The notes beneath the pieces were generated by a model that was given only the letters and a program-made list of their open reading frames with translations, did no database searches and was not told where the DNA came from. This document shows, piece by piece, positions 6,264 through 27,507 of a stretch of 64,000 nucleotides of DNA. Position 1 is the first letter of the stretch. Each line of letters starts with the position of its first letter. The stretch lies in NCBI GenBank assembly GCA_963840855.1, contig CAWJBB010000007.1:1-64000 (forward strand), read 5' to 3'. The position numbers and the translations under genes were made by a program. This stretch comes from an uncultured delta proteobacterium. Its GTDB lineage: Bacteria; Desulfobacterota; Binatia; UBA9968.

Positions 6264-6282
6264 GGGTCAAGAGGAGAAAGTC

Positions 6283-11200: not shown

Positions 11201-11563
11201 AGGGCTCGTTCGATAGCGGGAACCAGGCGTTCGAGTTGATCCTTGAGCAGGTAATCCGTCGCGCCCGACTTGAGGCATTCGACTGCTTCGATGTCACCCA
11301 GCGAGCCGGAGATCATTATGACGGGCACCTGAGGCTGTTTCGCCAAAGACGCTTCTAACGCAGCTCGCCCGCTGTAGCCGGGCACAGTGTAATCGCAGAG
11401 AACGACGTCAAAGCGCGCACGATCCAGCGCGGACTCGAAGCTTGCCTTATCGGTTACGTAGGTCACATCGCATGATAGTCCTTCTGAACCGAGCTTTCTT
11501 CGGATCAGCTCCGCATCCTGCGGATTGTCGTCAAGATGGAGAATGTCGAATGGAACTTTGCAT
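8295..11563 (-). pseudogene. Hybrid sensor histidine kinase REC-PAS-PAS-GAF-HisKA-HATPase-REC-Hpt, broken by several frameshifts and an in-frame TAG
   Basis: ILHLDDNPQD REC, PAS (NLFEIAPDGLLI), GAF, FLATMSHEIRTPMN, NAIKFT, DPGIG, GTGLGL, VVDDN*LNRNVL (TAG 9039-9041), Hpt AHRLKGAA. Confidence 0.85.
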
Positions 11564-11976: not shown

Positions 11977-12780
11977 ATGGCGAAGTTGGTGTTAGCTGCC
12001 GGAGTTCCGCATCCGCCCAGGCTTGTCTACGAGATGGCGCAGGCGCCGGGGAAAATGAAGGGCGAAGCGCTCATGAAGCAGGTTCGCGAGCAAGTCGAGA
12101 AGGCCGAGCCTGACGTTATTATCGAAGTGGACAGCGATCATTTTGTGAATTTCTTTTATAACAACTTGCCGTCTTTTTGCGTCGGCATGGCCGAGGAAGC
12201 CCAGGGGCCTCAGGAATCCTGGTGTCCGATGCCGCGTTACGTGGTCAAGGGACATGTTTCCATGGCCAAGGCGCTGTTCAAGTACGGAGTGCATGACAAG
12301 TTCGACTTGGCCGCGGCCCATGAGCTTCGTCCGGATCACTCGCTCATGGTGCCTTTGCACTTTCTCAACCCGGCAATGGCACTGCCGGTGATCCCGATCT
12401 ATACGAATGGATTTGCTTCGCCTTTGCCTCTGGCAAGTCGTTGCCTTGCCCTGGGTCGGATGCTACGCCGGTTTATCGACGCGTGGGAAGGGAAGGAGCG
12501 GGTGGCGCTTGTCGCCAGCGGCTGTTTCGCCCAGGACGTCGGCGGGCCGCTCAGGGGCTGGACCGACACCGAATGGATGGAAACTATTTCCGGACTGCTC
12601 GTCAAAGGGCAGTACCAGGCGCTTGCCCGGCGCGCCACCGAAGAGCGCATCAATCACGCCGGTAACAACAGTGGCGAGCTACTGAACTGGATCACGGTCA
12701 CCGGCGCGGTAGGCAAGACCAGGCCGCTGTTCCTGGAAAATGATGAAGGCTCCGGATACTCGGTGTGGAAATTCGATTGA
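11977..12780 (+). CDS. LigB-like (class III) extradiol ring-cleavage dioxygenase large subunit, atypical active site
   Basis: GVPHPP, DSDHFVNFF, RPDHSLMVPL, SGELLNW match LigB His12/His61/His127/Glu242 positions. Confidence 0.82.
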   Translation: MAKLVLAAGVPHPPRLVYEMAQAPGKMKGEALMKQVREQVEKAEPDVIIEVDSDHFVNFFYNNLPSFCVGMAEEAQGPQESWCPMPRYVVKGHVSMAKALFKYGVHDKFDLAAAHELRPDHSLMVPLHFLNPAMALPVIPIYTNGFASPLPLASRCLALGRMLRRFIDAWEGKERVALVASGCFAQDVGGPLRGWTDTEWMETISGLLVKGQYQALARRATEERINHAGNNSGELLNWITVTGAVGKTRPLFLENDEGSGYSVWKFD

Positions 12781-12789
12781 ACGGGGAAC

Positions 12790-13110
12790 GTGATGAGCGT
12801 CTATCAGGTCAATAAGCTTCTCTATATGACGGACAACGATCCCGCATTCCGCAAACGGATGAAAGAGGAGCCGGAAGCCGCGCTGAAAGACTTCCGGATT
12901 ACCAAGGAAGAGCATGACGCCTTGACTTCGGGATCCGTGGGCAAGCTCTACCAGATGGGCGTGCACACTTTTCTCTTAAATCATCTTTCGCGCTATGAGC
13001 TGTTCGGCGTGAACCGCGACAATTATCTGGAACGGATTCGCGAAGGAATGGAATACGACGCGCGCTTTGAACAAGGCAAAATGCCCATGCAGTATTTCAT
13101 CAAGCAGTAA
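12790..13110 (+). CDS. LigA-like small subunit of ring-cleavage dioxygenase
   Basis: MSVYQVNKLLY...ITKEEHDALTSG...LYQMGVHTFLL; directly follows the LigB-like gene. Confidence 0.75.
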   Translation: MMSVYQVNKLLYMTDNDPAFRKRMKEEPEAALKDFRITKEEHDALTSGSVGKLYQMGVHTFLLNHLSRYELFGVNRDNYLERIREGMEYDARFEQGKMPMQYFIKQ

Positions 13111-13185
13111 GTTCGACGGGCTCCAAGCCGTCGAACAAATTGCATCACTTCCCTCACGCGCGAGCAAAGCCGTTTCTTTGTCATA

Positions 13186-13215
13186 TTGACACCTCCGGAC
13201 CTGCTCGGATATTTT
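13186..13215 (+). promoter_or_regulatory. Candidate sigma70 promoter of Rieske cluster
   Basis: TTGACA (13186) followed 18 nt later by TATTTT; weak -10. Confidence 0.35.
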
Positions 13216-13262
13216 CTGCCGCAGTGACGGCAGGTAATCGGTTTAGATCGAGGAGAAAAATT

Positions 13263-14438
13263 ATGGCGTTGAGTCGTGAAGAAAACGAAATGCTGACTCG
13301 CGTGGGCAAAGGGACTCCCGGTGGCGAGATGTTGCGCCGCTACTGGCACCCCATCGGTTTTAGCAATGAATTGAAAAACCGGCCGGTCAAAAGACGGCTC
13401 CTCGGTGAAGACCTGGTACTGTTTCGCGATGAAAACGGCCGCGCGGGCTTGCTCACTTTGTTTTGCCTGCATCGGGGGACCTCCCTCGAATTCGGTCATA
13501 TCGAAAACGGCGGACTGCGCTGCTGCTATCATGGTTGGTTGTATGACGTCGAGGGAAAGATCTTGGAAACGCCCGGCGAGCCGGCGGACAGCACGTTCCG
13601 GCAGCGCATGCGCCAGCCCGCGTACAAGGTGGAGGAGCTGGCGGGAATTATTTTCGCCTATCTCGGTCCCGACCCGGCGCCGCTGTTGCCGCGTTACGAT
13701 GTTTTGGTGCGCGACGACGGTGTACGCTCGCTCAGCGGGCGCGTCGTCCATTGCAATTTTTTGCAGATGGTCGAGAACAGCGTCGATCAGCACCATTTCA
13801 AGTGGCTGCACCGCACGCCCAAGACCCGCTTCTGGAAAGATGAAAGACTGACTTCGGATGCCACCGAGTACGGTATTCGCGATACATTTACGCGCCGCGT
13901 AGGGGATGAGTATTTCCGCACCATCAGTTTGTTTTTGATGCCCAACATGAACAAGGTGGGGTATCACCTGCCCGAAGACCATCCGGCAGCGTTTGCCGCC
14001 ACCCATGAGGGCTACGAGGCGCTACGCTGGCGCGTGCCCATCGACGACACCAACACGATGCATTTCACGCTTTACTTCTCTCCCATTATCGACGGTAAGG
14101 CGGCGAAGATACCGCCTGACCAATCGGAGCAAGGTCTGCTCGACAGCGTGCACGGCAAATACCGGTGGGATGAAGAGACCGGCTGGATCGCGCGCGGCGA
14201 CCAGGACCGCTGCGCCCAGGAAAGCCAGGGGGCGATCTTCGACCGCACTCAGGAGCATCTCGGCGTCTCCGATGAAGGCGTCATTTTGCTGCGCAAAATG
14301 TTCAAGCAGTCGATCGAAGCCGTGCAGCGCGGCGAAGATCCGGTGGGGATCATTCGCGATCCGGCGAAAAACGAAATCCTGCGTTGGGTGCCAGCGGAAT
14401 TTAAACTCGATCCTGAAAGTGAGGCCGCCCATGCGTAG
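13263..14438 (+). CDS. Rieske non-heme iron oxygenase, phthalate 4,5-dioxygenase/LigX-like (type A, copy 1)
   Basis: CLHRG...CCYHGW Rieske motif; ENSVDQHHFKWLH and DQDRCAQESQG mononuclear iron motifs. Confidence 0.93.
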   Translation: MALSREENEMLTRVGKGTPGGEMLRRYWHPIGFSNELKNRPVKRRLLGEDLVLFRDENGRAGLLTLFCLHRGTSLEFGHIENGGLRCCYHGWLYDVEGKILETPGEPADSTFRQRMRQPAYKVEELAGIIFAYLGPDPAPLLPRYDVLVRDDGVRSLSGRVVHCNFLQMVENSVDQHHFKWLHRTPKTRFWKDERLTSDATEYGIRDTFTRRVGDEYFRTISLFLMPNMNKVGYHLPEDHPAAFAATHEGYEALRWRVPIDDTNTMHFTLYFSPIIDGKAAKIPPDQSEQGLLDSVHGKYRWDEETGWIARGDQDRCAQESQGAIFDRTQEHLGVSDEGVILLRKMFKQSIEAVQRGEDPVGIIRDPAKNEILRWVPAEFKLDPESEAAHA

Positions 14439-15522
14439 ACAAATCATGATGGGCTGCTGTTTAGGCGTTCTTCTTTCTGCCATCGCTTTCCTGCTCGCGG
14501 TTGCGCAAGGATTCGCCGCGGAAGGCGTCGAGTCGCTGATCGCGGGAGCGAAGAAGGAAGATGAAATAACCTTTGTTGCCGGCGCGCAAACCTTCGGCGG
14601 GAGAAAAGGGCTCGCCGATCTGGAAGGCGCGTTCAACAAAAGATTTGGCTTGAAGACGCGCATCAACTTCGCGGCCGGCCCGGACATGAACGCGCGGGCG
14701 GCACGGCATATCACGGAGATCAAGTCGGGGCGCAAAGCGTCGTCGGATATTTTTCTTGGCTCGCAGTCGCACCAGGCGTTGATGCATGTGGAAAACGCCC
14801 TCGAAAAGGTCAATTACGCGGGCCTGTTTCCCTGGGTAACCAAGGAGATGGAGATCTATCCCAACGAAGCCGTGCTGGTTTACACCTCGCCCAACGGGAT
14901 TATCTACAACGTCAATCTGATTCCCAAAGACAAAGCGCCCAAGAATTATCTTGATTTGATCGATCCGCGTTTAAGTCCGGCGTGGGCCGGCAAGTTGGCG
15001 ATACCGCCTTACGTTGCCTGGCTGGCGGAGTTATCGCTCAATTGGGGACAGGAGAAAGTCAAGGACTTCGCGCGCAAGCTCGTGGCGATCAGCGGCGGCC
15101 GGCTGCGCTACAGCGAAGAGGAACGCATCGTCAGTGGTGAATTTCCAGTGATGGCGAATATCGGCGACGCTTTGGGCGCCATGTGGACCTGGCAGACCAA
15201 GGGCGCGCCGATTATGGCGGTGCCCGGAACGTCGCCCATCAATACCGATTATTTCCAACTCAGCGTGCCGAAGAACGTCGCCCATCCTAATCTCGCCAAG
15301 CTGTTTGTCGCCTTCATGGCCACCAAGGAGGCACAAGCGATTCTGCAAAAATACGAGTCGCGTAGCTCCCACCTGGTGGAAGGGACCATAATGCACAAGT
15401 ATTTGCACGAAAACCGGGTCACGGTGCAGGAGCCGAAGGAATCGATTGCCTACTATCTCAAGGGCGAGTCGGACGAAGGACTTCAGTTCAAGGCGGAGTT
15501 GGCGAAGATACTCAAACAGTAG
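14431..15522 (+). CDS. Extracellular solute-binding protein (Fe3+/thiamine/polyamine ABC superfamily), copy 1
   Basis: Signal peptide, AGAKKE, IIYNVNLIPKDKAPKNY, KNVAHPNLAKLFVAFM; overlaps the Rieske stop. Confidence 0.88.
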   Translation: MRRQIMMGCCLGVLLSAIAFLLAVAQGFAAEGVESLIAGAKKEDEITFVAGAQTFGGRKGLADLEGAFNKRFGLKTRINFAAGPDMNARAARHITEIKSGRKASSDIFLGSQSHQALMHVENALEKVNYAGLFPWVTKEMEIYPNEAVLVYTSPNGIIYNVNLIPKDKAPKNYLDLIDPRLSPAWAGKLAIPPYVAWLAELSLNWGQEKVKDFARKLVAISGGRLRYSEEERIVSGEFPVMANIGDALGAMWTWQTKGAPIMAVPGTSPINTDYFQLSVPKNVAHPNLAKLFVAFMATKEAQAILQKYESRSSHLVEGTIMHKYLHENRVTVQEPKESIAYYLKGESDEGLQFKAELAKILKQ

Positions 15523-15584
15523 TTTCTAGTTTCTGGTTCCAAGTTCGGTCAATCGAGAAACTTGAAACTAGAAACCAGAAACTC
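15523..15584. repeat. Heptamer inverted array (TAGTTTC)n...(GAAACTA)n
   Basis: tttctagtttctggttccaagttc ... gaaacttgaaactagaaaccagaaact. Confidence 0.7.
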
Positions 15585-15594
15585 TGGAGGCCGA

Positions 15595-16728
15595 ATGTTA
15601 TCCAAAGAAGAAAACGAATTATTGACGCGCGTGGGCCGCGGCACGCCGGGCGGCGAAATGCTGCGGCGTTATTGGTGGCCGGTGGGCTTCTCAGAGTTGG
15701 TCAGCAAGAATGGCCAGCCGGTCAAAGCGCGCTTGCTCGGCGAAGATCTGGTGCTCTTTCGGGACGGCGGCGGCAGGCTCGGGGTCCTTGCGCTGCACTG
15801 CTCGCACCGCGGCACGTCACTAGAGTTCGGCCGGGTGGAAGAGACTGGTATTCGCTGCTGCTACCACGGCTGGCTCTACGACATCCATGGGCAATGTCTC
15901 GAACAGCCCGCGGAACCGGCCGACAGTAGTTTTAAAAACCGCGTGCAGCATCCGGCTTACCAGGCTCAGGAGATCGCCGGGTTTATTTTTGCTTACATGG
16001 GTCCTGCACCCGCGCCGCTGCTGCCAAACTATGATCTGTTTCTTCGAGAAGACGGCGAGCGCCATGTCGGCGCCGGCCATGACTATTGCAACTGGCTGCA
16101 GCGCGCCGAAAATTCTGTGGACCAAACTCATCTCGTAGCGCTGCACGCGCCCGAGTATCCGCACATGGCCTTGAAACGGCCGGTCATCGGCTGGGAGCGA
16201 ACCGCCTACGGGTCAAAAATTTCGATGCATGTTCCGGGCGTCAGCAAGCCGAAATATTCCCACTGGATTTTTCCCTCGCACACACGGCATACCACGGCTA
16301 GGATCGGGCGCATCCCGGACCACGCGATTCGCTTTCGTGTGCCCGTGGACGATATCAACACGAAAACCTTTTGGTTGCGATTCTATCCTTACGGCGAGAG
16401 CGAAAGAGACAAGCCGCTGGTTCTCAAGACCGTGGGTTTTGAAAACGACCAGCCGGGAGTCTACAACCGCGTCGACGACGGCTGGTGGGGTATCGCGTCC
16501 AACGATCAGGATCGCGTGGCGCAAGAGAGCCAGGGACGGATCTTTGACCGCACCAAGGAGCATCTGGGCGCGTCGGACGAGGGCGTCATCATGCTGCGCG
16601 CGATGATCAAGGAATCGATAGACGCCGTGGGCCAAGGGAAAGATCCGATCTGGACCATCAGGGACGCGGCGCAAAATAAAAAGATCGCCTTCGACGCGAG
16701 CATGCAGGAGATCGGGGCGCTGACATGA
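15595..16728 (+). CDS. Rieske non-heme iron oxygenase (type B, copy 1)
   Basis: CSHRG...CCYHGW; NWLQRAENSVDQTHLVALH; DQDRVAQESQG. Confidence 0.93.
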   Translation: MLSKEENELLTRVGRGTPGGEMLRRYWWPVGFSELVSKNGQPVKARLLGEDLVLFRDGGGRLGVLALHCSHRGTSLEFGRVEETGIRCCYHGWLYDIHGQCLEQPAEPADSSFKNRVQHPAYQAQEIAGFIFAYMGPAPAPLLPNYDLFLREDGERHVGAGHDYCNWLQRAENSVDQTHLVALHAPEYPHMALKRPVIGWERTAYGSKISMHVPGVSKPKYSHWIFPSHTRHTTARIGRIPDHAIRFRVPVDDINTKTFWLRFYPYGESERDKPLVLKTVGFENDQPGVYNRVDDGWWGIASNDQDRVAQESQGRIFDRTKEHLGASDEGVIMLRAMIKESIDAVGQGKDPIWTIRDAAQNKKIAFDASMQEIGALT

Positions 16729-16737
16729 CCGCTGGCG

Positions 16738-16857
16738 CGGTTCAAATCGTTCAAAAAGTTCAAGCCGCGCGATGCGCGGTTCAACGTTTAAGGTTCAAAG
16801 TTCAAGGTTTGAAATCCGGCTAAGACGTTGAACCCGGAACATTGAACTTTGAACGGG
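16738..16857. repeat. GTTCAA/TTGAAC heptamer-nonamer inverted array
   Basis: gttcaaagttcaaggtttgaaatccggctaagacgttgaacccggaacattgaactttgaac; near-identical to 19271-19345. Confidence 0.8.
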
Positions 16858-16873
16858 TTTCAAAGAGGAAATC

Positions 16874-18022
16874 ATGCTGTCCAAGGAAGAAAACGATTTT
16901 TTCACCCGCGTCGGGCCGGGTACTCCGGCCGGCGAGATGCTGCGCCGTTACTGGCATCCGATTGCGTTTGCCGCCGAGCTGAAGAATCGGCCCCTGCGCC
17001 GCCGGATACTCGGCGAAGATCTGGTGTTGTTCCGGGACGATAAAGGCAGACTCGGTCTTTTGCAGCTGCGCTGCTCGCATCGCGGCACGTCCCTCGAATT
17101 CGGCCACCTCGAAGACGGCGGCTTGCGATGCTGCTATCACGGCTGGCTCTACGACGTCGAGGGCAAAATATTGGAAATGCCCGGCGAGCCCGCCGACAAC
17201 AGGTTTTGGCAAAGGCTGCGTCATCCGGCCTACAAGGTTCAAGAGCTTGGCGGCGTGATCTTCGCGTATCTCGGCCCTGAGCCGGCGACGCTTTTGCCGC
17301 ACTGGGACGTGCTGGTGCGCGAAGATGGCGTGCGCGCGCGGCGCGCGCGCACGGTGAACTGCAACTATTTTCAGATGATCGAGAACTCTGTGGATCAGAA
17401 CCATTTGCGCTGGCTGCACCGCACGGCGGCGACGCCGACATGGGACGACGGCGAGATCAACCCGCAAGTGTTCGAATACGGCGTGCTCAACACTTACACG
17501 CGGCGCGTCGCCGACGGCCAACGCTACGCCCATGTTAATTTTTTCGTGATGCCGAGCATAAACAAGACCGGCAACGTCGAGGAAGGCCATCCCGGCGAAC
17601 ACCAGGCCAGCAGCTCCGGCGAGGTCATGCGCTGGCGCGTGCCCATCGACGACACCCACACGATGCACTTCACGGTGGAGTTCGGCGCGGTGGTCAATGG
17701 CAAACCGGTGGCGCAGATCATGAAAGACGAATCGGAGAGGGGACTCATCGAATCCGAGTACGGAGTTTACAAGTGGGACGATGAGATCGGCTGGTTCGCC
17801 CGCGGCGATCAAGACCGCGTCGCCCAGGAAAGCCAGGGCATGCTCTACGACCGCAGCAATGAGCATCTGGCCTACACGGACAGGGGGGTGATTCTCTTGC
17901 GCCGTCTGTATAAGGAATCCATCGAGTCGGTAAGAAAAGGCGGCGATCCCATCGGTGTGGTGCGCGACCCGGCGAAAAACGATCTGATTCGTCTTCGGCC
18001 CTATGAAGAACGGTTGGACTAA
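16874..18022 (+). CDS. Rieske non-heme iron oxygenase (type A, copy 2)
   Basis: CSHRG...CCYHGW; NYFQMIENSVDQNHLRWLH; ARGDQDRVAQESQG; shares RWRVPIDDT.TMHFT and YKWDDE.GW.ARGDQD with 13263-14438. Confidence 0.93.
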   Translation: MLSKEENDFFTRVGPGTPAGEMLRRYWHPIAFAAELKNRPLRRRILGEDLVLFRDDKGRLGLLQLRCSHRGTSLEFGHLEDGGLRCCYHGWLYDVEGKILEMPGEPADNRFWQRLRHPAYKVQELGGVIFAYLGPEPATLLPHWDVLVREDGVRARRARTVNCNYFQMIENSVDQNHLRWLHRTAATPTWDDGEINPQVFEYGVLNTYTRRVADGQRYAHVNFFVMPSINKTGNVEEGHPGEHQASSSGEVMRWRVPIDDTHTMHFTVEFGAVVNGKPVAQIMKDESERGLIESEYGVYKWDDEIGWFARGDQDRVAQESQGMLYDRSNEHLAYTDRGVILLRRLYKESIESVRKGGDPIGVVRDPAKNDLIRLRPYEERLD

Positions 18023-18057
18023 AAACTCGGTGGGTGCAACGAATGAACAAGCGTTTT

Positions 18058-18170
18058 CCCTCTCCCGCACGCGGTCTTTAGATTGGCACAAAGGTCGCAT
18101 GCGGGAGAGGGCCAGGGTGAGGCAAACCACCCTCACCTCTATCCTCTCCCTCCAAAGGAGGGCGAGGAGG
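18058..18170. repeat. CCCTCTCCC...GGGAGAGGG palindromic intergenic repeat
   Basis: CCCTCTCCCGCA (18058) pairs with TGCGGGAGAGGG (18100), followed by a second related hairpin. Confidence 0.65.
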
Positions 18171-18189
18171 TCGTGACGAGGAGAACCAA

Positions 18190-19263
18190 ATGAAATCCTG
18201 GACGAGCAAATTGTTTTTGGCTCTCTCTATTATGCTGGTCGATTACTCACGATTACTTGCCGCTGAAACCATCGAGCAACTGATCGCTGGGGCAAAGAAA
18301 GAATCTGAGCTGACTTTCATCGCCGGCGCGCAGACCTTTGGCGGCGCGAAGACGCTGGCGGCGTTGGAGGCGGCGTTCAACAAGCGATTTGGCTTGAACG
18401 CAAGAATCCGTTTCGCCGCGGGACCGGAGATGAACGCCATGGCCGCGCGAGTGATCACGGAACATAAAAGCGGCGCCAAGGCGTCCACCGATATGTACCA
18501 CGGCTCCCAATCGCACTTTTCTTTGCTGCATAAAGAGAAAACGTTGGAGCAGATCGATTGGTCCGGCGTCTTTCCCTGGATTACCAAGCCGATGGAGATC
18601 TTTCCCAAAGAGGGACTGCTGATCTTCACCTCGCTGCGGGGCACTATTTATAATTCCAAACTGATTGCCAAAGAGAAGGCGCCAAAGACTTACGAAGATC
18701 TGGTGGATCCGAAACTGAGCCCGACCTGGGCCGGAAGGTTGGCGATTCCTCCGTACGTCTCCTGGCTTGTCGAGCTGTCGATGATTTGGAGCGAAGATAA
18801 GGTCAAAGATTTTACCCGCAAGCTGGTGGCTTTGAGCGGCGGGCGGCTGCGTTACAGCGAGGAAGAAAGGGTGGTGAGCGGTGAGTTTCCCATCGCCGCC
18901 AACATGGGCGGCGCGGTCGAACAGATGTGGCAATGGCAGGCCAAGGGCGCGCCGCTGGTGGCAGTAATGGGCTCGACACCGGTGCTGCCGTCCTATTTTC
19001 AACTGGGCGTGCCGAAGAATTCGGCCCATCCGAACCTGGCAAAGTTGTTCGTGGCCTTTATGGCTTCCAAGGAAGCGCAGGGGATTCTCGACAAGCTCGA
19101 CTTTCGTTCTTCGCACCTGGTGGAAGGCACAAGAATGGCGAAGTATCTGCGCGAAAATCCGGTCAAGCTTCAGGCAGCCAAGGATTCCATCGCTTTTTAT
19201 CTAAAAGGTGAGGACAGCGGTTTGGAGTTTAAAGAAGAGTTGACGAAAATGTTGAAGCAATGA
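18190..19263 (+). CDS. Extracellular solute-binding protein, copy 2
   Basis: Close paralogue of 14431-15522 (AGAQTFGG, LSPTWAGRLAIPPYV, GGRLRYSEEER). Confidence 0.88.
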   Translation: MKSWTSKLFLALSIMLVDYSRLLAAETIEQLIAGAKKESELTFIAGAQTFGGAKTLAALEAAFNKRFGLNARIRFAAGPEMNAMAARVITEHKSGAKASTDMYHGSQSHFSLLHKEKTLEQIDWSGVFPWITKPMEIFPKEGLLIFTSLRGTIYNSKLIAKEKAPKTYEDLVDPKLSPTWAGRLAIPPYVSWLVELSMIWSEDKVKDFTRKLVALSGGRLRYSEEERVVSGEFPIAANMGGAVEQMWQWQAKGAPLVAVMGSTPVLPSYFQLGVPKNSAHPNLAKLFVAFMASKEAQGILDKLDFRSSHLVEGTRMAKYLRENPVKLQAAKDSIAFYLKGEDSGLEFKEELTKMLKQ

Positions 19264-19270
19264 AAACAGA

Positions 19271-19345
19271 GGTTCAATGTTCAACGTTCAAGTTAAGTTG
19301 GAAATCCGGCTAAAACGTTGAACCCGGAACATTGAACCTTGAACT
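19271..19345. repeat. GTTCAA/TTGAAC heptamer inverted array
   Basis: gttcaatgttcaacgttcaag...ttgaacccggaacattgaaccttgaac. Confidence 0.8.
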
Positions 19346-19363
19346 GATTTCAAAGAGGAAAGC

Positions 19364-20497
19364 ATGTTGTCCAAAGAAGAAAATGAACTCATGACCCGCG
19401 TCGGGCGCGGCACACCGGCGGGGGAGATGCTCCGGCGCTATTGGTGGCCGGTGGCGTTTACCGAAGCCGTGCAGCCGAAGGGCGCCCCGACTAAAGTAAG
19501 GTTATTGGGTGAAGATCTTGTGCTGTTCCGCGACGGCGGCGGCAACCTAGGCGCGCTCGAACTGCACTGTTCCCATCGCGGGACGTCACTCGAGTTCGGG
19601 CGAGTCGAAGATAAGGGTATCCGGTGCTGTTATCACGGCTGGCTCTACGACAGGCGCGGCAAATGTTTGGAGCAGCCCGCCGAGCCGGAAGACAGCACAT
19701 TCAAAGAGCGGATTCAGCATCCGGCGTTTCACGCCCTGGATGCAGGCGGTCTCGTCTTCATCTACATCGGCCCGGAACCTGCGCCCCTGTTGCCAGGCTA
19801 CGACTTGTTAGTTCGAGCCGACGGCTGCCGTGTGGTCGGTGGCGGTGAGGAGTTCTGTAACTGGTTGCAGCGCGCCGAGAATTCCGCGGACGGCGGACAT
19901 TCGATAGCGCTCCATGCCGCCGGTTATCCGAACATGGCGATGAAGCGGCCGACGATCAAATGGGAGCCGACCCCTGTCGGCATCAGAGAAACCACTTGGG
20001 TCGAAGGTGTGTCGAGACCGAGAATCTCCCATTTCGTATTTCCCTCGCATGTACGCCACTCGGCGGCCCGGGTCGGAGAACAGCCGCGCCAGGTGATGCG
20101 TTTTCGCGTGCCGGCGGACGATACCACAACGAATACATTTTGGATCGATTTTTATCCGCATAAAAACGGCCAGCCGACCCGGTCCGTGCCGTTAAGAACC
20201 AAAGGTTTCAAAAAAGACCAGCCGGGGGTATACGAACGTGTGCCAGACGGCTGGTGGAATATCCCCAACCGCGAGCAAGACCGAGTTGCGCAAGAGACCC
20301 AGGGTGTGATCGCGGATCGGACCCAGGAACATTTGGCATCGTCGGATACGGGCATTCTCATGCTGCGCAAGATGATCCGAGACGCCATCGATACGGTGGC
20401 TCAAGGTAAAGATCCCATCGGTGTGCTCAGAACCGCCGGCGCGAACCAACCGATTACTTTCGATTCGAGCCGCGACGCGGTTGAGGCGCTGAATTGA
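19364..20497 (+). CDS. Rieske non-heme iron oxygenase (type B, copy 2)
   Basis: CSHRG...CCYHGW; NWLQRAENSADGGHSIALH; shares FPSH.RH..AR.G and DQPGVY.RV.DGWW with 15595-16728. Confidence 0.93.
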   Translation: MLSKEENELMTRVGRGTPAGEMLRRYWWPVAFTEAVQPKGAPTKVRLLGEDLVLFRDGGGNLGALELHCSHRGTSLEFGRVEDKGIRCCYHGWLYDRRGKCLEQPAEPEDSTFKERIQHPAFHALDAGGLVFIYIGPEPAPLLPGYDLLVRADGCRVVGGGEEFCNWLQRAENSADGGHSIALHAAGYPNMAMKRPTIKWEPTPVGIRETTWVEGVSRPRISHFVFPSHVRHSAARVGEQPRQVMRFRVPADDTTTNTFWIDFYPHKNGQPTRSVPLRTKGFKKDQPGVYERVPDGWWNIPNREQDRVAQETQGVIADRTQEHLASSDTGILMLRKMIRDAIDTVAQGKDPIGVLRTAGANQPITFDSSRDAVEALN

Positions 20498-20555
20498 AAA
20501 GACATTAATGTCACGGCCGGGAATGGTTAGAATCGCTTGCGTTCAGGCGAAGAGA

Positions 20556-20620
20556 AAATCCAGTGTGGCGGCGAAGAGGCAATGGCGCAAAACCTGGATT
20601 CCCGCTTGCGCGGGAAAGAC
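20556..20620. repeat. CTGGATTCCCGC-type intergenic palindrome
   Basis: aaatccag ... ctggattcccgcttgcgcgggaaagac; related motif cctgcgcgggaatgac at ~31948. Confidence 0.55.
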
Positions 20621-20667
20621 GGACAATAAAAGCCACTTCGAGTCGACGTTTTCACGGGAGGAGAATC

Positions 20668-21732
20668 ATGCTTAGAACCATCACGGTCGTCGGCGCATGC
20701 TTCATGATGTTTCTCGCGGGCGCATATCAGGCCGCGGCGCAAGAGAACCTTGAACAGCTCGTCGCCGGCGCCAAAAAAGAAGGCGAAGTCACTCTGGTCG
20801 CGAGCGCTTCAACCTTCGGTGGCAAGAAAGGTTTTGCCGATTTGGAAGCGGGGTTCAACAAGAGATTCGGACTCAAACACAAGCTCAACCTCGCTCCCGG
20901 CCCGAGTTTTCCGCAGGTGGCGGCGCGGGTTTTGACCGAGCTCAAGTCGGGCGCGAAATCCTCGACGGACTTGTATCTCGGATCGGACGGCACCATGAGC
21001 GATATGCACCGGGAAAAGGCGTTACAGAAGGTCAACTGGTCGGGCACTTTCCCCTGGGTGATCAAGGATATGGAAATTTTTCCCCAGGAGACGTTGCTGG
21101 TTTATGCCTCGTTTCACGGCATCATTTACAATTCCAATTCGATTCCCAAAGACAAAGCGCCGAAGAGTTACGAAGATCTCATTGATCCGGCGCTGAGCCA
21201 AACTTGGGCCGGAAAAATCGCCATTCCCGCCTACATTCACTGGCTGGTTCGCTTGTCCGCGAGTTGGGGAAAGGAAAAGGTGCTGGCCTACGCCCGCAAG
21301 CTCGCGCCGTTGGCCGGCGGGCGGCTGCGCCAGGGCGAAGAGGAGCGGATCGTCAGCGGCGAGTTTCCGATCATGGGGAGCACCGGCGGCGCCTTGGAGG
21401 CGATGTGGAAGTGGCAAGCCAAGGGAGCGCCGCTGGTGGGACTCCCCGGCTCGACTCCGCCGACCTCTTCTTACTATCAACTCGCCGTGCCGCGAAATTC
21501 GGCGCATCCCTATTCCGCCAAACTGTTCGTTGCCTTTATGACCACCCGAGAAGCGCAAGCGGTCATTGAGAAACATGACTGGCGCTCGTCCTATCTGGTC
21601 GATGGCACCTTGATGGCGAAGTACGTGCGCGGCAACAAAATCAAGCTTCAAGACCCGCGGGAGCTGAACGAACTGTTCATGAAAGACGACGCACCCTTCG
21701 AGGATGAGTTGACCAAGATACTGCTCAAATAA
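20668..21732 (+). CDS. Extracellular solute-binding protein, copy 3
   Basis: Paralogue of the two preceding binding proteins; GGGAGGAG RBS. Confidence 0.88.
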   Translation: MLRTITVVGACFMMFLAGAYQAAAQENLEQLVAGAKKEGEVTLVASASTFGGKKGFADLEAGFNKRFGLKHKLNLAPGPSFPQVAARVLTELKSGAKSSTDLYLGSDGTMSDMHREKALQKVNWSGTFPWVIKDMEIFPQETLLVYASFHGIIYNSNSIPKDKAPKSYEDLIDPALSQTWAGKIAIPAYIHWLVRLSASWGKEKVLAYARKLAPLAGGRLRQGEEERIVSGEFPIMGSTGGALEAMWKWQAKGAPLVGLPGSTPPTSSYYQLAVPRNSAHPYSAKLFVAFMTTREAQAVIEKHDWRSSYLVDGTLMAKYVRGNKIKLQDPRELNELFMKDDAPFEDELTKILLK

Positions 21733-21766
21733 GCCGCCGCGCGCAAATATAAAGGAATCGTTTGAA

Positions 21767-22077
21767 ATGGCGCGCACCAATCATCCCATGGACGAAATAA
21801 ATTTCGTCCACACCGGCCCGGGCACGATAGCGGGACGGTATCTGCGCCGGTTCTGGCAACCGGTCTATGTGGCCGAAAGACTCAACGCCGGACAGGCGAT
21901 GCCGATTCGCATCATGGGTGAAGACTTTACGCTCTATCGCGGTGAGAGCGGTCCGATACGGCGATCATTCTCATGAGAAAAATTTGGCTGCGCGAGCTGC
22001 GCGCTTTGTCCGAAGGCCGGCCATTGAAGAATTGGTTTCTGCCGGACCAGCTCGCCGCCACCAGCGGAGTGCAATGA
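21767..22077 (+). pseudogene. Rieske oxygenase gene with large internal deletion
   Basis: N-terminus FVHTGPGTIAGRYLRRFWQPV...GEDFTLYRGESG joined at ~21950, out of frame, to a C-terminus SDTAIILMRKIWLRELRALSEGRPLKNW...VQ*. Confidence 0.82.
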
Positions 22078-22192
22078 TGTGCAACCTTATGAAAATCGAT
22101 ATTGCCGCGCAGCAGTTTTATCTGCTGCTCCTCGCGTCGGATTAGCGACTGAGAAATATTAAAGTTTACAAATGAGTTGTCAGGCGAGTTTC

Positions 22193-22280
22193 TGTCATCG
22201 CGGTCCTTCGGCTGCGCTCAGGATAAACTCCGGATCTCGGTCGAGATTCTTCACTCCGCTGCGCTATGTTCAGAATGACA
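22193..22280. repeat. TGTCAT...ATGACA-bounded intergenic palindromic element
   Basis: tgtcatcgcggtccttcggctgcgctcaggataaactcc...gagattcttcactccgctgcgctatgttcagaatgaca. Confidence 0.55.
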
Positions 22281-22329
22281 GGATGGAGAATTAGAAAATT
22301 TAATTTCTAACAACCCCTACCATGATGCC

Positions 22330-24087
22330 ATGAGCGTCACTGAACACGCGCAAATCTGGCGGCCAAGGCCCGCGCAGATCAACTGGTCGCAGGTCCCGAT
22401 CTTGGCGGTCGCGGGGGTTGCGGCGGCGGCCATCATCGGCTTGCTCGTCACCATCGTGTGGATGAGCTTTCGCACCGGTGTGCCGGGCCAGCCGTCGCCT
22501 CTCACGCTGAGCAACTACGCGTCGTTGCTCTCCGATCCTTATAATTATCGGGTCATGGTGACGACTTTGATTTTTTCCGGCGTCACCATTGCCGTGGCGA
22601 TTCCTCTCGGCTTCTTGTTCGCCTGGTTCATCGAGCGGACGGATTTACCGAGCAAAACTCTGGCCATGAGCCTCTTGAGCATCGGCATACTCTTGCCGAC
22701 CTTTCTTAAGGCGATGGGTTGGGTTTTTCTTTGCCATCCGCGCATCGGTGTTATCAATGTTTTCTTGATGCAGTTGTTTGATCTTAAGACCGCTCCGCTC
22801 AATGTGGCGACCCTGGGAGGCATCGGTTTCGTCCAGGGCTTGACCCTGACGCCGCTCGCCTACGTGATGATTTCCGCCGCGCTGCGTAGTATGAATCCCG
22901 CCTTCGTCGAAGCTGCCAACGTGCACGGCGTGAGCAAATTGAAAACGCTGCTGGGCGTGGAGCTGCCGCTCATCTGGCCGGCGCTGTTTTCGGCGGTGAT
23001 CTGGATGTTCACCGTCGCCATCGCCGCCTTCGATGTTCCCGGCGTCATCGGCATGGCAAATAACATTTTTACTTTCAGCACCGCCGTTTATTTTATGATC
23101 AATCCAAATGAAGGACTGCCGCGCTATGGGCTCAGCGGCGCCTACGGAACGCTGATGGTGATCTTTTCGCTGATTCTGATGATTCCCTACTTCATCGCGC
23201 TGAAGCAGAGCCATCGCTACCAGATCATTTCCGGAAAATCCTATCAGTCGCGGCCCGTCGAGCTGGGACGCTGGTGGTTGCTCGGTTGGGGGCTGCTCGG
23301 GCTTTATTTCATCCTTGCATTCATTTTGCCGTTGCTTGCGATCTTTTGGGTTTCACTTTTACCTTACATGCAGGCGCCCTCGCGCCAAGCGCTGGCGTCC
23401 GTAACCTTCGAACGTTACGCCTCGCTTGCCTTCGACAGCGGCCTCTTACAGGCGGGTTGGAACACGTTACTGCTGATGGTGCTGGTGCCGACTCTGATCG
23501 TGCTCATCTGCGCCGCCATCTCGTGGATAGTTACCCGCTCGCGCTTGCGTTGGCGCGTGGCGTTGGATGCCATCGCATTCCTGCCGCATCCCGTGCCCAA
23601 TTTGCTCTTCGCCCTGGCGATCGCTTACTTTGCCCTGCTAATCTCCAACGTTGTGCCGGTCTATGGAACGATCTATGTGATCATGGCCGTTTACATCGTC
23701 TGCTGGGTAAGCTTTGGCACCAGGATCTTGAACAACAGCATGATCCAGCTGCACCGGGACCTGGAAGAAGCGGCGCAGGTAGGCGGCGTTTCGACCTTGC
23801 GCATCCTTTCAAAAGTGATCGTGCCGCTGATTCGCCCCGGCATCGTGTACGCCTGGATCTGGACGTCTCTCTCGGCGTATCGCGAGCTGACCATGGCGGT
23901 ATTTCTGGCGTCGCCCAAGAGCCAGGTGCTTTCCACTTATATATGGGGACAATGGCATGGGGGCGGGCTGGGTGACGCGGCGGCCATCGCCATCATCATG
24001 ATGGCGGTCATGTCGCCGCTGGTCACGACTTTTTGGATCTATGCGCGGCGCCAACAACATGTAGAGTCTTCCGCTGTCGTAGGTTAG
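22330..24087 (+). CDS. ABC transporter permease, fused double TMD (FbpB-like)
   Basis: About 12 hydrophobic segments; two EAA loops (FVEAANVHG, LEEAAQVGG). Confidence 0.92.
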   Translation: MSVTEHAQIWRPRPAQINWSQVPILAVAGVAAAAIIGLLVTIVWMSFRTGVPGQPSPLTLSNYASLLSDPYNYRVMVTTLIFSGVTIAVAIPLGFLFAWFIERTDLPSKTLAMSLLSIGILLPTFLKAMGWVFLCHPRIGVINVFLMQLFDLKTAPLNVATLGGIGFVQGLTLTPLAYVMISAALRSMNPAFVEAANVHGVSKLKTLLGVELPLIWPALFSAVIWMFTVAIAAFDVPGVIGMANNIFTFSTAVYFMINPNEGLPRYGLSGAYGTLMVIFSLILMIPYFIALKQSHRYQIISGKSYQSRPVELGRWWLLGWGLLGLYFILAFILPLLAIFWVSLLPYMQAPSRQALASVTFERYASLAFDSGLLQAGWNTLLLMVLVPTLIVLICAAISWIVTRSRLRWRVALDAIAFLPHPVPNLLFALAIAYFALLISNVVPVYGTIYVIMAVYIVCWVSFGTRILNNSMIQLHRDLEEAAQVGGVSTLRILSKVIVPLIRPGIVYAWIWTSLSAYRELTMAVFLASPKSQVLSTYIWGQWHGGGLGDAAAIAIIMMAVMSPLVTTFWIYARRQQHVESSAVVG

Positions 24088-24093
24088 GCAAAC

Positions 24094-25167
24094 ATGATCG
24101 GCATTCGTTCACTGACCAAGATTTTTAAATCCGGCGGTGAGGCGGTGCGCGCCGTGGACGGCGTCGACTTGCAGGTTGATGAGAAAGAATTTTTTGTTCT
24201 CCTCGGCTTGAGCGGTTCCGGCAAGACGACATTGCTGCGCTGCGTCGCGGGTTTGGAGAAGGCCGACGGCGGAGTAATCAAGCTTGGCGATGTTGTCGTA
24301 AGCGCGCCGGAACGCGGCATTTTTATCCCGGCGGAGGACCGGGCGCTGGGCATGGTTTTTCAGTCTTACGCCGTTTGGCCGCACATGACGGTGTTCGAAA
24401 ACGTGGCGTTTCCGCTCGCCAACGGCAAGCGCAAACTGGCGCGCGCCAAAGTCCGCGACCGCGTCATGGGCGCGCTTGAACTGGTTCAACTCGCGGCGCT
24501 GGCCGCAAGGCCGGTGCCATTTTTAAGCGGCGGCCAACAGCAGCGCGTGGCGCTGGCGCGGGCGCTCGCCGTGGAGCCCAAAGTGCTGCTGATGGACGAG
24601 CCGCTGAGCAATCTGGACGCGCGCCTGCGTGAAGAAGTGCGCGACGAGATTCGTAATTTAGCGACGAAGCTCAGCATCACGGTGCTCTATGTCACACACG
24701 ATCAAGTAGAGGCGATGGCGCTCGCCGACCGCATCGCGGTCATGAGCGGTGGAAAAATTCTTCAGATCGGCGCGCCCCAGGAGTTATACCACTCTCCGCA
24801 AGACCGCAAGGTTGGAGAGTTTTTGGGCTCAATGAATGAGTTCGAGGGCGCCCTGCAAAGCGACGGGCGTGTAAAGCTCGGCCTCGGGCTTGTCGACTGC
24901 GCGCCGCCGAATCAGACCGCTAGGGAAGTCATCGTTGCGATCCGCCCGGAAGATGTGGTCGTGTCACATGCGCCGAGCGGTTCGAAAAACGAATTTCCGG
25001 CGGCGCTCGAGTCGCTACTCTTCCTCGGCGACATAACCGTTTATCAATTATCGATCAACGGCAAAAAACTGAGGGGCAAGACGACACATGCCGACCGCCA
25101 ATTGGCGGCAGGCAGCCAAGTGCATGTGCGCTTGCCCGCCGAGAAGTTAAAAATCTTTCCGAAGTAG
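24094..25167 (+). CDS. ABC transporter ATP-binding protein with TOBE domain
   Basis: GLSGSGKTT, LSGGQQQRVALARA, LLMDEPLSNLD, YVTHDQ. Confidence 0.95.
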   Translation: MIGIRSLTKIFKSGGEAVRAVDGVDLQVDEKEFFVLLGLSGSGKTTLLRCVAGLEKADGGVIKLGDVVVSAPERGIFIPAEDRALGMVFQSYAVWPHMTVFENVAFPLANGKRKLARAKVRDRVMGALELVQLAALAARPVPFLSGGQQQRVALARALAVEPKVLLMDEPLSNLDARLREEVRDEIRNLATKLSITVLYVTHDQVEAMALADRIAVMSGGKILQIGAPQELYHSPQDRKVGEFLGSMNEFEGALQSDGRVKLGLGLVDCAPPNQTAREVIVAIRPEDVVVSHAPSGSKNEFPAALESLLFLGDITVYQLSINGKKLRGKTTHADRQLAAGSQVHVRLPAEKLKIFPK

Positions 25168-25188: not shown

Positions 25189-25596
25189 ATGACGAACAAC
25201 ACCGCAGTCCCCACCGACCCACCGCCGAGTCTCGTCACCGTTACGCACCTCGTGTATGCCTTGCACGCGCTGAGCCTGCTAATCGGCGTGACGACCGCCG
25301 CAACCATTGTCGGCGCCTTCGTCTTTGGCGTGCCTTCGATCATTGCCGTCGTCATCAACTATGTAAAGAGAAGAGAGGCAAGAGGCACTTTTCTCGAGTC
25401 GCACTTTCGCTGGCAAATCCGGACGTTCTGGTTTGCGTTCCTCTGGTGCATGATCGGCGGGGTGCTGTTCGTTACTATCGTGGGCATTCCGCTTGCGTTT
25501 GGGATTTACTTCGCGACCGGCGTATGGGCGATCTATCGGATCGCTCGCGGCTGGCTGGCGCTGCGAGATCGAAAGCCGATGTATACGAACAGTTGA
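25189..25596 (+). CDS. DUF4870-like membrane protein
   Basis: HLVYAL, INYVKR, ESHFRWQIRTFW, IYRIARGW motifs. Confidence 0.75.
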   Translation: MTNNTAVPTDPPPSLVTVTHLVYALHALSLLIGVTTAATIVGAFVFGVPSIIAVVINYVKRREARGTFLESHFRWQIRTFWFAFLWCMIGGVLFVTIVGIPLAFGIYFATGVWAIYRIARGWLALRDRKPMYTNS

Positions 25597-26499: not shown

Positions 26500-27507
26500 C
26501 TACCGCCCCGCCCGGAGCTTGTCGAAGAACCCGCTCTTTTCCATTTTCTCAAGAAAGGTCAGGTCGATGATATCCTGTGGCTTGAGTTTCTTTGCCCGCG
26601 GGTCTGTCTTGGCGGTCTCGTCGAGGATCGCTTGTAACGATTCCATGCGAAATTGCATCCGCGGCTCCATCACTTTGATTTCTTCATCGTAGGCGGCGTC
26701 GAGGACCTTGCGGTCGCTGATGCGCAGCTGTTTGCCGAGAACTTTGTATGTGAGCTCCTTGTCCGTGAACATGAGGTTCACCGCTTCCGTCATGGCACGG
26801 ACAAACCTTTCGACAACCGGCCCGCGCGTCCGAATCAAGGCGCGGCGCGTCACCAGAGTTGCCGCGGCAAAGGGAATGCGTAAATCGGGCCCGTAGACGG
26901 CATAGCGAAAGCCTTTGGAGATAGCTATGGCCCCGCCGGAAGGACCGGTCATGGTGGCGGCGTCGACATTGCCGCTCAACAACGCAGAGAGGTTCTCGAC
27001 TTGCCCGCCAGTCTGAAGGAGGTTTATGTCGGCGGGCTCCATGCCGAATCGCCTTAATACCTGAATCACAAAGTAATGCGAATTGCTGCCGAGACGGGTG
27101 AGCCCCAGCTTCTTGCCTTTGAGTTCCTCAGGCCTCTTGATATCAGGGCGGGCCAAAATGCTGTGGGTGAGGCTGTTCTTGGCGGCGGCGACAAAAACCA
27201 ACTCATTAACGCCTTGAGTCGCGGTGCGCACGACGGACTCGCCGCCCGTGATGGCGACATCGCCGCTGCCGCTAAGCATTGCCGCGTTCACCATACTGGC
27301 CGATGAAGCATAAACGAGCTGAAATTCCAAATCGTATTTCTTGAAAAGCCCGGCCTCCTCGGCGATCCAAGGCATCGATTGCGACATGGTGCGCGCGGAG
27401 TGAATGCCGAGAAGTTTATCCGCAGCCGATACCTGATAGGGCAGGAGCAGAAAAATAATTAATGAGATAAACCTACAACAGTTGGGAGTGGCAGCGCCAA
27501 CTGTCAT
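26500..27507 (-). CDS. ABC substrate-binding protein, NMT1/SsuA-like
   Basis: WIAEEAGLFKKYDL, LKGKKLGLTRLGS, ALLSGNVDA; GAGGAGG RBS. Confidence 0.88.
   Translation of the reverse strand: MTVGAATPNCCRFISLIIFLLLPYQVSAADKLLGIHSARTMSQSMPWIAEEAGLFKKYDLEFQLVYASSASMVNAAMLSGSGDVAITGGESVVRTATQGVNELVFVAAAKNSLTHSILARPDIKRPEELKGKKLGLTRLGSNSHYFVIQVLRRFGMEPADINLLQTGGQVENLSALLSGNVDAATMTGPSGGAIAISKGFRYAVYGPDLRIPFAAATLVTRRALIRTRGPVVERFVRAMTEAVNLMFTDKELTYKVLGKQLRISDRKVLDAAYDEEIKVMEPRMQFRMESLQAILDETAKTDPRAKKLKPQDIIDLTFLEKMEKSGFFDKLRAGR

Follow-up and report, generated by a model that had tools for sequence, protein, structure and literature searches.

Interleaved Rieske oxygenase and substrate-binding protein genes in an uncultured Binatia bacterium: a putative modular uptake-and-oxidation array

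Introduction

Why would a bacterium alternate genes for Rieske oxygenases with genes for secreted substrate-binding proteins (SBPs), and set them all before a single ATP-binding cassette (ABC) importer? The question is raised by a gene array on contig CAWJBB010000007.1 of an uncultured delta proteobacterium assigned to the Binatia (assembly GCA_963840855.1), of which we analyzed positions 1 to 64,000, hereafter called the window. Little is known of the carbon sources of Binatia, which are abundant in soil and uncultured. We found no paper on Rieske oxygenases in Binatia, nor one joining LigXa, Rieske and ABC transporter, and a listing of papers on Binatota, ring-hydroxylating and aromatic showed nothing on this array.

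An earlier note, made from the letters of the window, had described a duplicated module in which one Rieske oxygenase (type A), an SBP and a second Rieske oxygenase (type B) follow each other, with each A and B pair acting on the ligand captured by its own binding protein either as a hetero-oligomer or in two sequential steps. Comparison with related loci leads to a more general rule: a Rieske gene is followed by its own receptor type, and such cassettes are gained, lost and shuffled before one permease. We read the locus as a modular uptake-and-oxidation array, in which receptor-oxygenase cassettes for related aromatic acids would share one translocator and depend on an unlinked reductase and a ring-cleavage enzyme, and we give this reading an even chance of being right. 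The parts are of known kinds, namely phthalate-family Rieske oxygenases, class-D binding proteins, LigAB and multi-receptor ABC importers; what is new are two uncharacterised clades and their conserved combinatorial alternation.

Gene content and order of the array

The array spans 11977-25167 as a single unbroken series of plus-strand genes, from LigB through the TOBE-type ATPase, with short gaps: A1 and S1 overlap by 8 nt, and the other intact genes are at most 167 nt apart. The gene content and order given in the earlier note were borne out by open reading frame (ORF) and Pfam annotation. The Rieske oxygenase A1 (13263..14438; Pfam Rieske and partial LigXa_C), an alpha-only enzyme resembling phthalate dioxygenase (PDO) and LigXa, is followed by the secreted SBP S1 (14431..15522; SBP_bac_11/1/6) and by the oxygenase B1 (15595..16728; Rieske and LigXa_C). 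The same succession is then repeated with A2 (16874..18022; Rieske), the secreted S2 (18190..19263; SBP families) and B2 (19364..20497; Rieske at 2e-20, and LigXa_C). Downstream lie the secreted S3 (20668..21732; SBP families), the remnant of a fifth Rieske gene (21768..~22078), a fused two-domain ABC permease (22330..24087; two BPD_transp_1 stretches) and an ABC ATPase with a C-terminal TOBE domain (24094..25167; ABC_tran and TOBE_2), so that the array holds three SBPs, one permease and one ATPase. The gene names are also used below for the corresponding orthogroups.

The S1 start is most likely the ATG at 14431, and S3 starts at the ATG at 20668, with a GGGAGGAG stretch upstream. Scans for promoters (9 promoter-like sites vs 5.8 ± 2.3 expected) and for terminators (12 terminator-like sites vs 17.5 ± 4.6 expected) were uninformative. 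Two long ORFs on the minus strand, at 16820-18136 over A2 (438 aa) and at 13023-14006 over A1 (327 aa), are most likely high-G+C artefacts, because the sense genes have strong family matches.

Gene order in related loci

Related loci were collected by an SBP-alignment scan of one genome per species, which gave 60 loci from 47 metagenome-assembled genomes (MAGs). Their titles read Candidatus Binatia in 28 cases and carry older 'delta proteobacterium' labels in 22; a few are labelled Verrucomicrobiota, Thermodesulfobacteriota, Chloroflexota or Pseudomonadota, which may be binning noise. All counts refer to 59 loci (58 and the window) curated by hand from the raw BLAST map, the neighbour annotation and the trees; the remaining two, L059 and L060, have SBPs only 23-28% identical and were left out. 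An automatic greedy gene map was not used for the counts, because real genes were lost in it under long spurious ORFs. Many of the loci sit on short contigs, and a gene missing at a contig end therefore tells nothing.

The gene that follows an oxygenase gene is, for most types, that of a particular receptor. A1 is followed by S1 in 24 of 25 cases, the exception being L013 with a racemase gene in between; A2 is followed by S2 in 27 of 31, the other four running from A2 directly to B2; B2 is followed by S3 in all 28 cases with a visible neighbour; and a third oxygenase type, C, is followed by a fourth receptor, S4, in 8 of 10. A fifth receptor, S5, occurs exclusively after B1 (6/6) and is present at 6 of the 22 B1 genes. 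S3, previously taken for a free third binding protein, thus belongs to B2.

The cassettes are combined in several ways. A1-S1-B1 is found as a direct series in 11 loci and with an inserted gene in two more, A1-S1-A2 in six and A1-S1-permease in two; A2-S2 continues to B2 in 18 loci, to B1 in five and to the permease in two. There is one permease per array, with 1-3 SBPs per permease, and in the 21 permease-containing loci whose left side is uncut there are 1-5 Rieske and 1-3 SBP genes. The fullest form, L053, reads LigB-LigA-A1-S1-B1-A2-B2-S3-C-S4-permease-ATPase. The gene after the permease is the ATPase in 18 loci, a type-C gene in seven and another gene in six, and the contig ends there in seven.

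These adjacency rules would also be expected if the oxygenases acted alone and in parallel, each Rieske-SBP pair serving a compound of its own, with B1 an extra enzyme for a compound entering by another route and with no chemistry in which B follows A. The free variation of cassette combinations, the equal numbers of Rieske and SBP genes in 12 of those 21 permease-containing loci, and the orthogroup-specific pocket residues described below are in line with such an arrangement. What it does not account for is B1, which is receptorless in 16 of 22 cases and yet is always found with an A gene in its locus where the upstream side is visible; moreover, A1-S1-B1 stands alone, with no permease alongside, in five loci (L022, L024, L029, L032, L048), which ties B1 to A1 and S1. 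We hold independent parallel pairs to be rather unlikely; they differ from the reading we prefer solely in whether A and B act on one molecule.

The order A-SBP-B is the commonest one, and the module previously proposed is real and recurrent. The same order, and the movement of A1-S1-B1 as a unit to the five separate loci (in two MAGs, A1-S1-B1 and A2-S2-B2-S3-permease even lie on separate contigs: L012 with L029, and L015 with L048), would suit a putative A and B hetero-oligomer, either a stack of two trimers (alpha3-alpha'3) or a mixed trimer, with one such enzyme for the ligand of each intervening binding protein. The module is not fixed, however. One array with A genes as its only oxygenases is complete on both sides (L021) and three more have no B in the usual downstream place (L017, L027, L038), B2-S3 occurs without A2 in two loci (L028, L044), and A2-S2 occurs without B2 in seven, all of which speaks against an obligate partnership.

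Phylogeny of the oxygenases and binding proteins

In a FastTree phylogeny of 101 Rieske proteins, the A clade (18 A1 and 27 A2 proteins) and the B clade (20 B1 and 26 B2) were each recovered with support of 99, as was each orthogroup within them, and type C (9 rows) fell outside both. Among the binding proteins, S1, S2, S3, S5 and S6 were each monophyletic at 96-100 and S4 formed a single group at a weak 57. S1 together with S5 was sister to S2, with a support of 89 in FastTree (89 rows) and of 88 by the Shimodaira-Hasegawa-like approximate likelihood ratio test (SH-aLRT) in a 'quick' IQ-TREE run on 34 picked rows, and S3 grouped with S6. The contexts of the receptor types follow their names: S4 stands after C, S5 after B1 in some loci, and S6 is an orphan with no Rieske neighbour. 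The grouping of A1 with A2 and of B1 with B2, on which the idea of a duplicated module depended, is thus found in the trees, and the binding proteins S1 (with S5) and S2 pair in the same way. On these alignments the SBP and Rieske orthogroups each appear to be monophyletic and old.

Pairwise identities tell the same story, with 62.6% for A1/A2, 63.1% for B1/B2 and 47.5-50.9% between A and B, and with 64.7% for S1/S2, 56.1% for S1/S3 and 55.1% for S2/S3. A1/A2, S1/S2 and B1/B2 therefore form three sister pairs of similar depth, as predicted by an ancient en-bloc duplication of A-SBP-B, the S1/S2 support being moderate and not decisive. The similar depth of the three splits would also fit the hetero-oligomer.

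At least 7971 homologues of A1 were found at E ≤ 1e-10 among the 8000 candidates scored; those with a name are proteins of 'Candidatus Binatia' or 'Deltaproteobacteria' MAGs, and those from JGI are often called '5,5'-dehydrodivanillate O-demethylase'.

Catalytic sites and pockets of the oxygenases

The division of the four intact oxygenases into two types was upheld by their motifs: among the window oxygenases, RWRVPIDDT.TMHFT and ARGDQD are exclusive to A1 and A2, and NWLQRAENS and DQPGVY.RV.DGWW to B1 and B2. All four proteins keep the Rieske ligands (CxH...CxxH) and the mononuclear iron site (His178, His183, Asp315) with the bridging Asp175, and the eight residues C68, H70, C87, H90, D175, H178, H183 and D315 are invariant in 101/101 aligned Rieske homologues. 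In a profile alignment they correspond to Cys70/His72/Cys89/His92, Asp178 and His181/His186/Asp343 of PDO, the enzyme whose catalytic and substrate-pocket residues have been defined experimentally (PMC8649396, excerpt).

An AlphaFold2 (AF2) model of A1, with a predicted local distance difference test (pLDDT) score of 90.5, had PDO (7v25) as its top Foldseek match, with a template-modelling (TM) score of 0.83. Over the whole chain it matched PDO, isophthalate dioxygenase (IPDO) and ROCH34 at TM 0.80-0.83 and 24-30% identity, and the Rieske family profile found the same three proteins over their full length (PDO 5e-86, IPDO 3e-74, ROCH34 6e-73). The top PDB matches of B1 were the same (7fhr 4e-55, 7fjl 5.6e-51). 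These nearest solved structures all act on aromatic carboxylates. The match to LigXa_C covers profile positions ~204-273 of 304 only, that is the C-terminal helices, at 33.9/30.5/25.2/37.7 bits against a cut-off of 27, and no NCBIfam model was reached by the Rieske oxygenases. We accordingly place them, as far as homology can tell, in an uncharacterised clade of the phthalate family; they appear to be neither phthalate dioxygenase nor a demonstrated LigXa.

The pocket positions of PDO were mapped onto the family through alignments at 24-30% identity. In the column of PDO Arg231, A1, A2 and C have Arg, B1 has Met and B2 Thr; that of Phe278 holds His in A1 and A2, Thr in B1 and B2 and mostly Ser in C; that of Phe280 holds Thr in A1 and A2, Trp in B1, Trp or Tyr in B2 and mostly Asn in C. 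At Ser179 there is Gln in A1, A2 and B1, Gly in B2 and mostly Gln in C, and at Ser182 Phe in A1, Leu in A2 and B1, Ser in B2 and Val in C. The A motif ...DDT.TMHFT and its B counterpart sit on the active-site strand. A further column, that of PDO Arg244, was dropped as evidence on carboxylate binding, the two aligners disagreeing on it: HMMER gives Arg/His/Lys/Arg for A1/A2/B1/B2, and MAFFT gives Arg for A1 only. The pocket columns are strictly conserved within each orthogroup and differ between types, which suggests that A and B carry out different reactions or attack different positions. All four enzymes are predicted to be catalytically competent, with four different pockets.

Complete Rieske and mononuclear iron sites in A1, A2, B1 and B2 mean that none of them is a mere structural partner, and this bears on the A and B hetero-oligomer. 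Such assemblies have precedents, since NdmA/NdmB and PDO appear in a review table as alpha3-alpha'3 and alpha3-alpha3, respectively (PMC12445004, excerpt). In PDO the trimers are stacked into hexamers by a 54-residue region (285-338) with two extended helices, and ROCH34, the closest sequence relative of the window enzymes, is a homotrimer by size exclusion (both PMC8649396, excerpt). The stacking region is shortened in the profile alignment of the family, and the A1 model has no helices at residues 277-310. The A-only loci, the full catalytic sites and the apparent lack of the stacking insert together weigh against an obligate A-B complex, and we consider an A and B hetero-oligomer unlikely; the enzymes are probably homotrimers.

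Binding proteins and translocator

The N-termini of the SBPs are hydrophobic and resemble signal peptides, that of S1 reading MRRQIMMGCCLGVLL... An AF2 model of S2 (pLDDT 91.9) was matched by Foldseek to the fold of the PotD/HitA/FbpA/MctA/FutA/AfuA/P5PA class with a probability of 1.00, a TM score of 0.58-0.69 and 14-21% identity. Homologues of S2 (1053 at E ≤ 1e-5) bear the automatic name 'ABC-type Fe3+ transport system substrate-binding protein', and matches in the ESM Atlas, which were Binatota SBP clusters only, gave no functional lead.

These names raise the alternative that the locus encodes an importer of iron or of a metal chelate, kept beside iron-hungry Rieske enzymes, or one that takes up aromatic chelators complexed with ferric iron, leaving the organic part to be destroyed by the oxygenases. 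The best PDB match of the SBP profile is HitA (5e-13), the metal-citrate binder MctA is among the fold matches, and there is a likeness to FbpB/FbpC-type systems in the fused permease and in the ATPase with its TOBE domain. Against this stand the residues themselves. FbpA proteins coordinate Fe3+ through consecutive tyrosines (PMC10804667, excerpt). In the distant profile alignment the NNYYWY stretch of HitA aligns to ...ALEAMW..., the Tyr-Tyr pair being replaced by Glu/Gly-Ala/Gln, and the SBP consensus shows no conserved YY pair. The names themselves come from automatic transfer, and all NCBIfam equivalog cut-offs for iron transporters are missed. A single ion would also hardly be expected to need three to four receptor orthogroups per locus that diverged anciently and are each tied to one oxygenase orthogroup. 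We regard the import of iron or a metal chelate as very improbable.

For receptors lacking the tyrosine iron ligands an organic ligand is plausible, as had been supposed for these Fe3+-type proteins before, and their fold class already includes solved binders of organic ligands: AfuA for sugar phosphates, MctA for metal-citrate, P5PA for pyridoxal phosphate and PotD for polyamines. The closest NCBIfam model of the permease is PhnU2 (123 bits vs a cut-off of 593), and those of the ATPase are PhnT2, GlcV and PotA, each under its cut-off.

Orphan binding-protein genes are unusually dense in the window (2979-3929, 6262-7278, 26500-27507, 30833-31918 and 59753-60754), three of the five being NMT1/THI5-like, one TctC and one ABC_sub_bind. 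Genes of the NMT1 kind often lie beside the arrays of relatives too, L009 and L014 having as many as four in succession.

Electron supply and ring cleavage

Alpha-only Rieske enzymes such as PDO work with a reductase, in that case PDR, encoded by phtB (PMC8649396, excerpt), and the absence of a reductase, ferredoxin or beta subunit from the cluster had been remarked on in the earlier note. The window has 77 non-overlapping ORFs of at least 60 aa, 75 of which were scanned against Pfam at E ≤ 1e-3 or 1e-4; the two left out, 16820-18136 (-) and 36222-37253 (-), are antisense to scanned genes. No reductase, ferredoxin or beta-subunit domain was found in these 75 ORFs of the 64-kb window, the only flavoprotein being a lipoamide-dehydrogenase-like protein (Pyr_redox_2 and Pyr_redox_dim) at 62129-63586 (-), 37 kb away. 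The observation holds for relatives as well: among 79 Pfam-scanned neighbour ORFs of the related loci (flanks of ~10 kb) there was no Rieske-oxygenase reductase or ferredoxin, the lone Fer2_3 match being of the SdhB type. The plant-type ferredoxin motif, searched as a regular expression, occurred in 0/3628 ORFs of at least 70 aa in the window and the 60 loci, a search that was the sole one to cover the other 313 unassigned locus ORFs of at least 90 aa.

Directly upstream of A1 and on the same strand lies a ring-cleavage pair that had been overlooked. The gene at 11977..12780 (+) encodes the catalytic subunit of a LigB-type class III extradiol ring-cleavage dioxygenase (Pfam LigB 2.5e-29, 102.6 bits), and a LigA-like small subunit (Pfam LigA 9.1e-09, 35.8 bits vs a cut-off of 25.3) is encoded at 12790..13110 (+), starting 9 nt after LigB. 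The best solved relative of LigB is the protocatechuate 4,5-dioxygenase beta chain (1b4u_B, 1.8e-21), and the protein remains under all NCBIfam equivalog cut-offs (103 bits vs 837 for PRK13372, 126 vs 290 for the subfamily model). LigB stands before A1 in L033 and L053, where the order LigB-LigA-A1 is kept, and after the ATPase in L017, L027, L030 and L052; a two-cupin (bicupin) protein is encoded inside or before the array in L004, L013 and L016. No cis-diol dehydrogenase recurred in the window genes or in the 79 scanned neighbour ORFs, which favours monooxygenase or demethylase chemistry over cis-dihydroxylation.

At the five loci with a standalone A1-S1-B1, citrate-synthase-like and enoyl-CoA hydratase genes always precede the module, a hint of a CoA-dependent downstream route, and in three of them (L022, L024, L048) a sigma-54 two-component pair follows it on the opposite strand. 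L032 also has, at 2862-4211, a very divergent Rieske gene (33% identical, branch length 1.57) 4.5 kb upstream of A1-S1-B1.

Type-C remnant and neighbouring genes

The deletion in the fifth Rieske gene, already noticed in the window, was confirmed by alignment with L001, and the gene can now be assigned to the third type, C, which is ~33% identical to A and B. The remnant consists of ~60 codons of the 5' end and ~43 codons of the 3' end. Window positions 21700-21951 match L001 6553-6805 at 95%, and 21948-22108 match L001 7643-7803 at 94%, so that ~838 bp have been lost inside the gene and the frame is broken. L001 and L053, the closest relatives, have an intact type-C gene; in the window, cassette C was lost recently.

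A hybrid sensor kinase (PAS-GAF-HisKA-HATPase-receiver-Hpt; 8295-11278, minus strand), divergent upstream of LigB, is split into three ORFs when compared with L033, where the 1088-aa ORF is intact; the 1-bp indels responsible, at 10238, 10510 and 11161, represent either long-read assembly errors or real decay of a likely regulator. Given the single-base indels in window genes outside the array, errors in the source assembly are possible; against their homologues, all nine array genes run to full length. A major facilitator superfamily (MFS) transporter (32936-34239, minus strand; two overlapping ORFs) and an LVIVD-repeat protein (39339-40509, minus strand; two ORFs) also look split or truncated, and fragments of hydantoinase B lie at 1-1258 (+), with a full copy at 4317-6230. 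A predicted membrane protein of 135 aa (25189-25596, plus strand) is encoded 21 nt past the ATPase gene; with neither Pfam nor NCBIfam giving a match, and BLAST finding none in the 60 related loci, it is probably outside the array.

Discussion

In the mechanism that we propose for a modular uptake-and-oxidation array, S1, S2 and S3 (and S4 in relatives) would each capture one compound in the periplasm, probably a small aromatic acid, methoxylated or hydroxylated, of plant or humic origin, and all receptors would pass their cargo to the single fused permease and its ATPase. In the cytoplasm, the imported compound would be oxidised by the alpha-only Rieske enzyme encoded directly upstream of its receptor (A1 for S1, A2 for S2, B2 for S3, C for S4). 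B1, usually without a receptor of its own, would travel with A1-S1; the A and B types would catalyze different reactions or attack different positions, and in A1-S1-B1 probably two consecutive steps. O-demethylation or monohydroxylation appears more likely than cis-dihydroxylation. Catechol- or gallate-type products may then be opened by the linked LigAB-type extradiol dioxygenase, or by the bicupin protein in some relatives. The paralogues would draw their electrons from a common reductase whose gene lies elsewhere, and the array would grow and shrink by gain, loss and shuffling of cassettes.

Several observations weigh against this reading, of which every functional step is inferred: the ligand class, the reaction type, the matching of receptor and oxygenase specificities, the sharing of the translocator and the oligomeric state. 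The carboxylate-binding residues of PDO are not conserved. Its Arg207 lies in an insert absent from these oxygenases, and the Arg244 column of the MAFFT alignment is Arg in 12/18 A1 proteins and not basic in A2, B1 and B2, so that an acid substrate is undemonstrated. The fold matches of the binding proteins are so distant that the ligand class is unreadable from them. B1 has no receptor of its own in most cases, and oxygenases outnumber receptors in 9 of the 21 permease-containing loci whose left side is uncut, so that one-to-one matching is imperfect. The permease gene of 13 relatives has something other than the ATPase gene after it, and the ATPase of these systems must be encoded elsewhere. 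Counting the window, no more than 7 of the 59 curated loci have LigB beside the array, and the standalone A1-S1-B1 loci are flanked instead by the citrate-synthase-like and enoyl-CoA hydratase genes. Lastly, substrates that are N-heterocyclic or non-aromatic would agree as well with the hydantoinase, isochorismatase-family and NMT1-type genes nearby.

The 13 relatives without an adjacent ATPase gene (L005, L007, L009-L012, L015, L019, L025, L040, L042, L045, L051) are mostly of the A2-S2-B2-S3-permease type, and the gene after their permease belongs to a C-S4 cassette (7) or is unrelated, such as AzlC (6).

Known systems resemble the array in part. PDO_KF1 (7fjl/7v25), IPDO (9ina) and ROCH34 (7fhr) are alpha-only like the window oxygenases, with the same N-terminal motif and the same positions of cluster ligands, bridging Asp and 2-His-1-Asp site. 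The window proteins are ~50-60 residues shorter; compared with PDO, their stacking region appears shortened, the Arg207 insert is lacking, the Ser179, Ser182, Phe278 and Phe280 positions are replaced, and no PDR-type reductase gene is nearby. The LigX 5,5'-dehydrodivanillate (DDVA) O-demethylase of Sphingobium SYK-6 (LigXa) has given its name to many homologues and to the Pfam LigXa_C match; this match is partial, no ferredoxin or reductase partners lie near the array, genes for LigXc/LigXd partners are absent from the window, and the comparison was made through the Pfam model. The LigB-type gene, and the Amidohydro_2 genes of some relatives, recall the DDVA pathway. The side-by-side subunit genes of LigAB protocatechuate 4,5-dioxygenase have the same arrangement as the pair in the window, which misses the equivalog level.

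The caffeine N-demethylases NdmA and NdmB are two paralogous alpha-only Rieske monooxygenases that perform consecutive demethylations, share one reductase and are listed as an alpha3-alpha'3 assembly (PMC12445004, excerpt). NdmA is distant from the window oxygenases, which it matches over the Rieske domain only (3.5e-09), and the reductase NdmD is described as part of that system, while none is linked to the window array. To our knowledge, no binding-protein genes are interleaved with ndmA and ndmB. On the side of uptake, FbpA/HitA, AfuA, MctA, P5PA and PotD represent the same two-lobed periplasmic class, working with a fused permease and a TOBE ATPase, and AfuA, MctA and P5PA are 'iron-type' folds that bind organic anions. 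The window SBPs differ from them in sequence (14-21% identity), in the lack of the Tyr-Tyr pair and in having 3-4 paralogues per transporter interleaved with oxygenase genes; we know of no solved member of this class that binds aromatic acids. In the phthalate pat/pad genes of Rhodococcus jostii RHA1, an ABC uptake system lies beside the Rieske oxygenase that attacks the imported acid, as is proposed here. Aromatic-acid clusters of the RHA1 type have one binding protein and an alpha-beta or PDO-type oxygenase with reductase, dehydrogenase and decarboxylase, and we know of none in which several receptors alternate with several oxygenases.

A bolder picture may be drawn, which we offer tentatively and think more likely wrong than right. 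Binatia would carry an expandable catabolic array, comparable to a polysaccharide utilization locus, in which pairs or triplets of a matched receptor and its Rieske oxygenase or oxygenases are duplicated, shuffled and lost before a shared translocator, with an unlinked reductase and a ring-cleavage enzyme; the receptors would be a new aromatic-acid branch of the iron/polyamine class, and A and B might form NdmAB-like stacked hetero-hexamers that channel a two-step oxidation.

The array, conserved in 47 MAGs, would link substrate capture to oxidation and could be read as a specificity code, in which the receptor type predicts the oxygenase type. It also offers a clean natural test of alpha-only Rieske paralogues sharing a distant reductase. 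If the ligands are lignin- or humus-derived aromatic acids, the array would provide matched receptor and enzyme pairs for biosensing and for the funnelling of mixed aromatics, and it would extend the 'iron-type' class of binding proteins to aromatic ligands.

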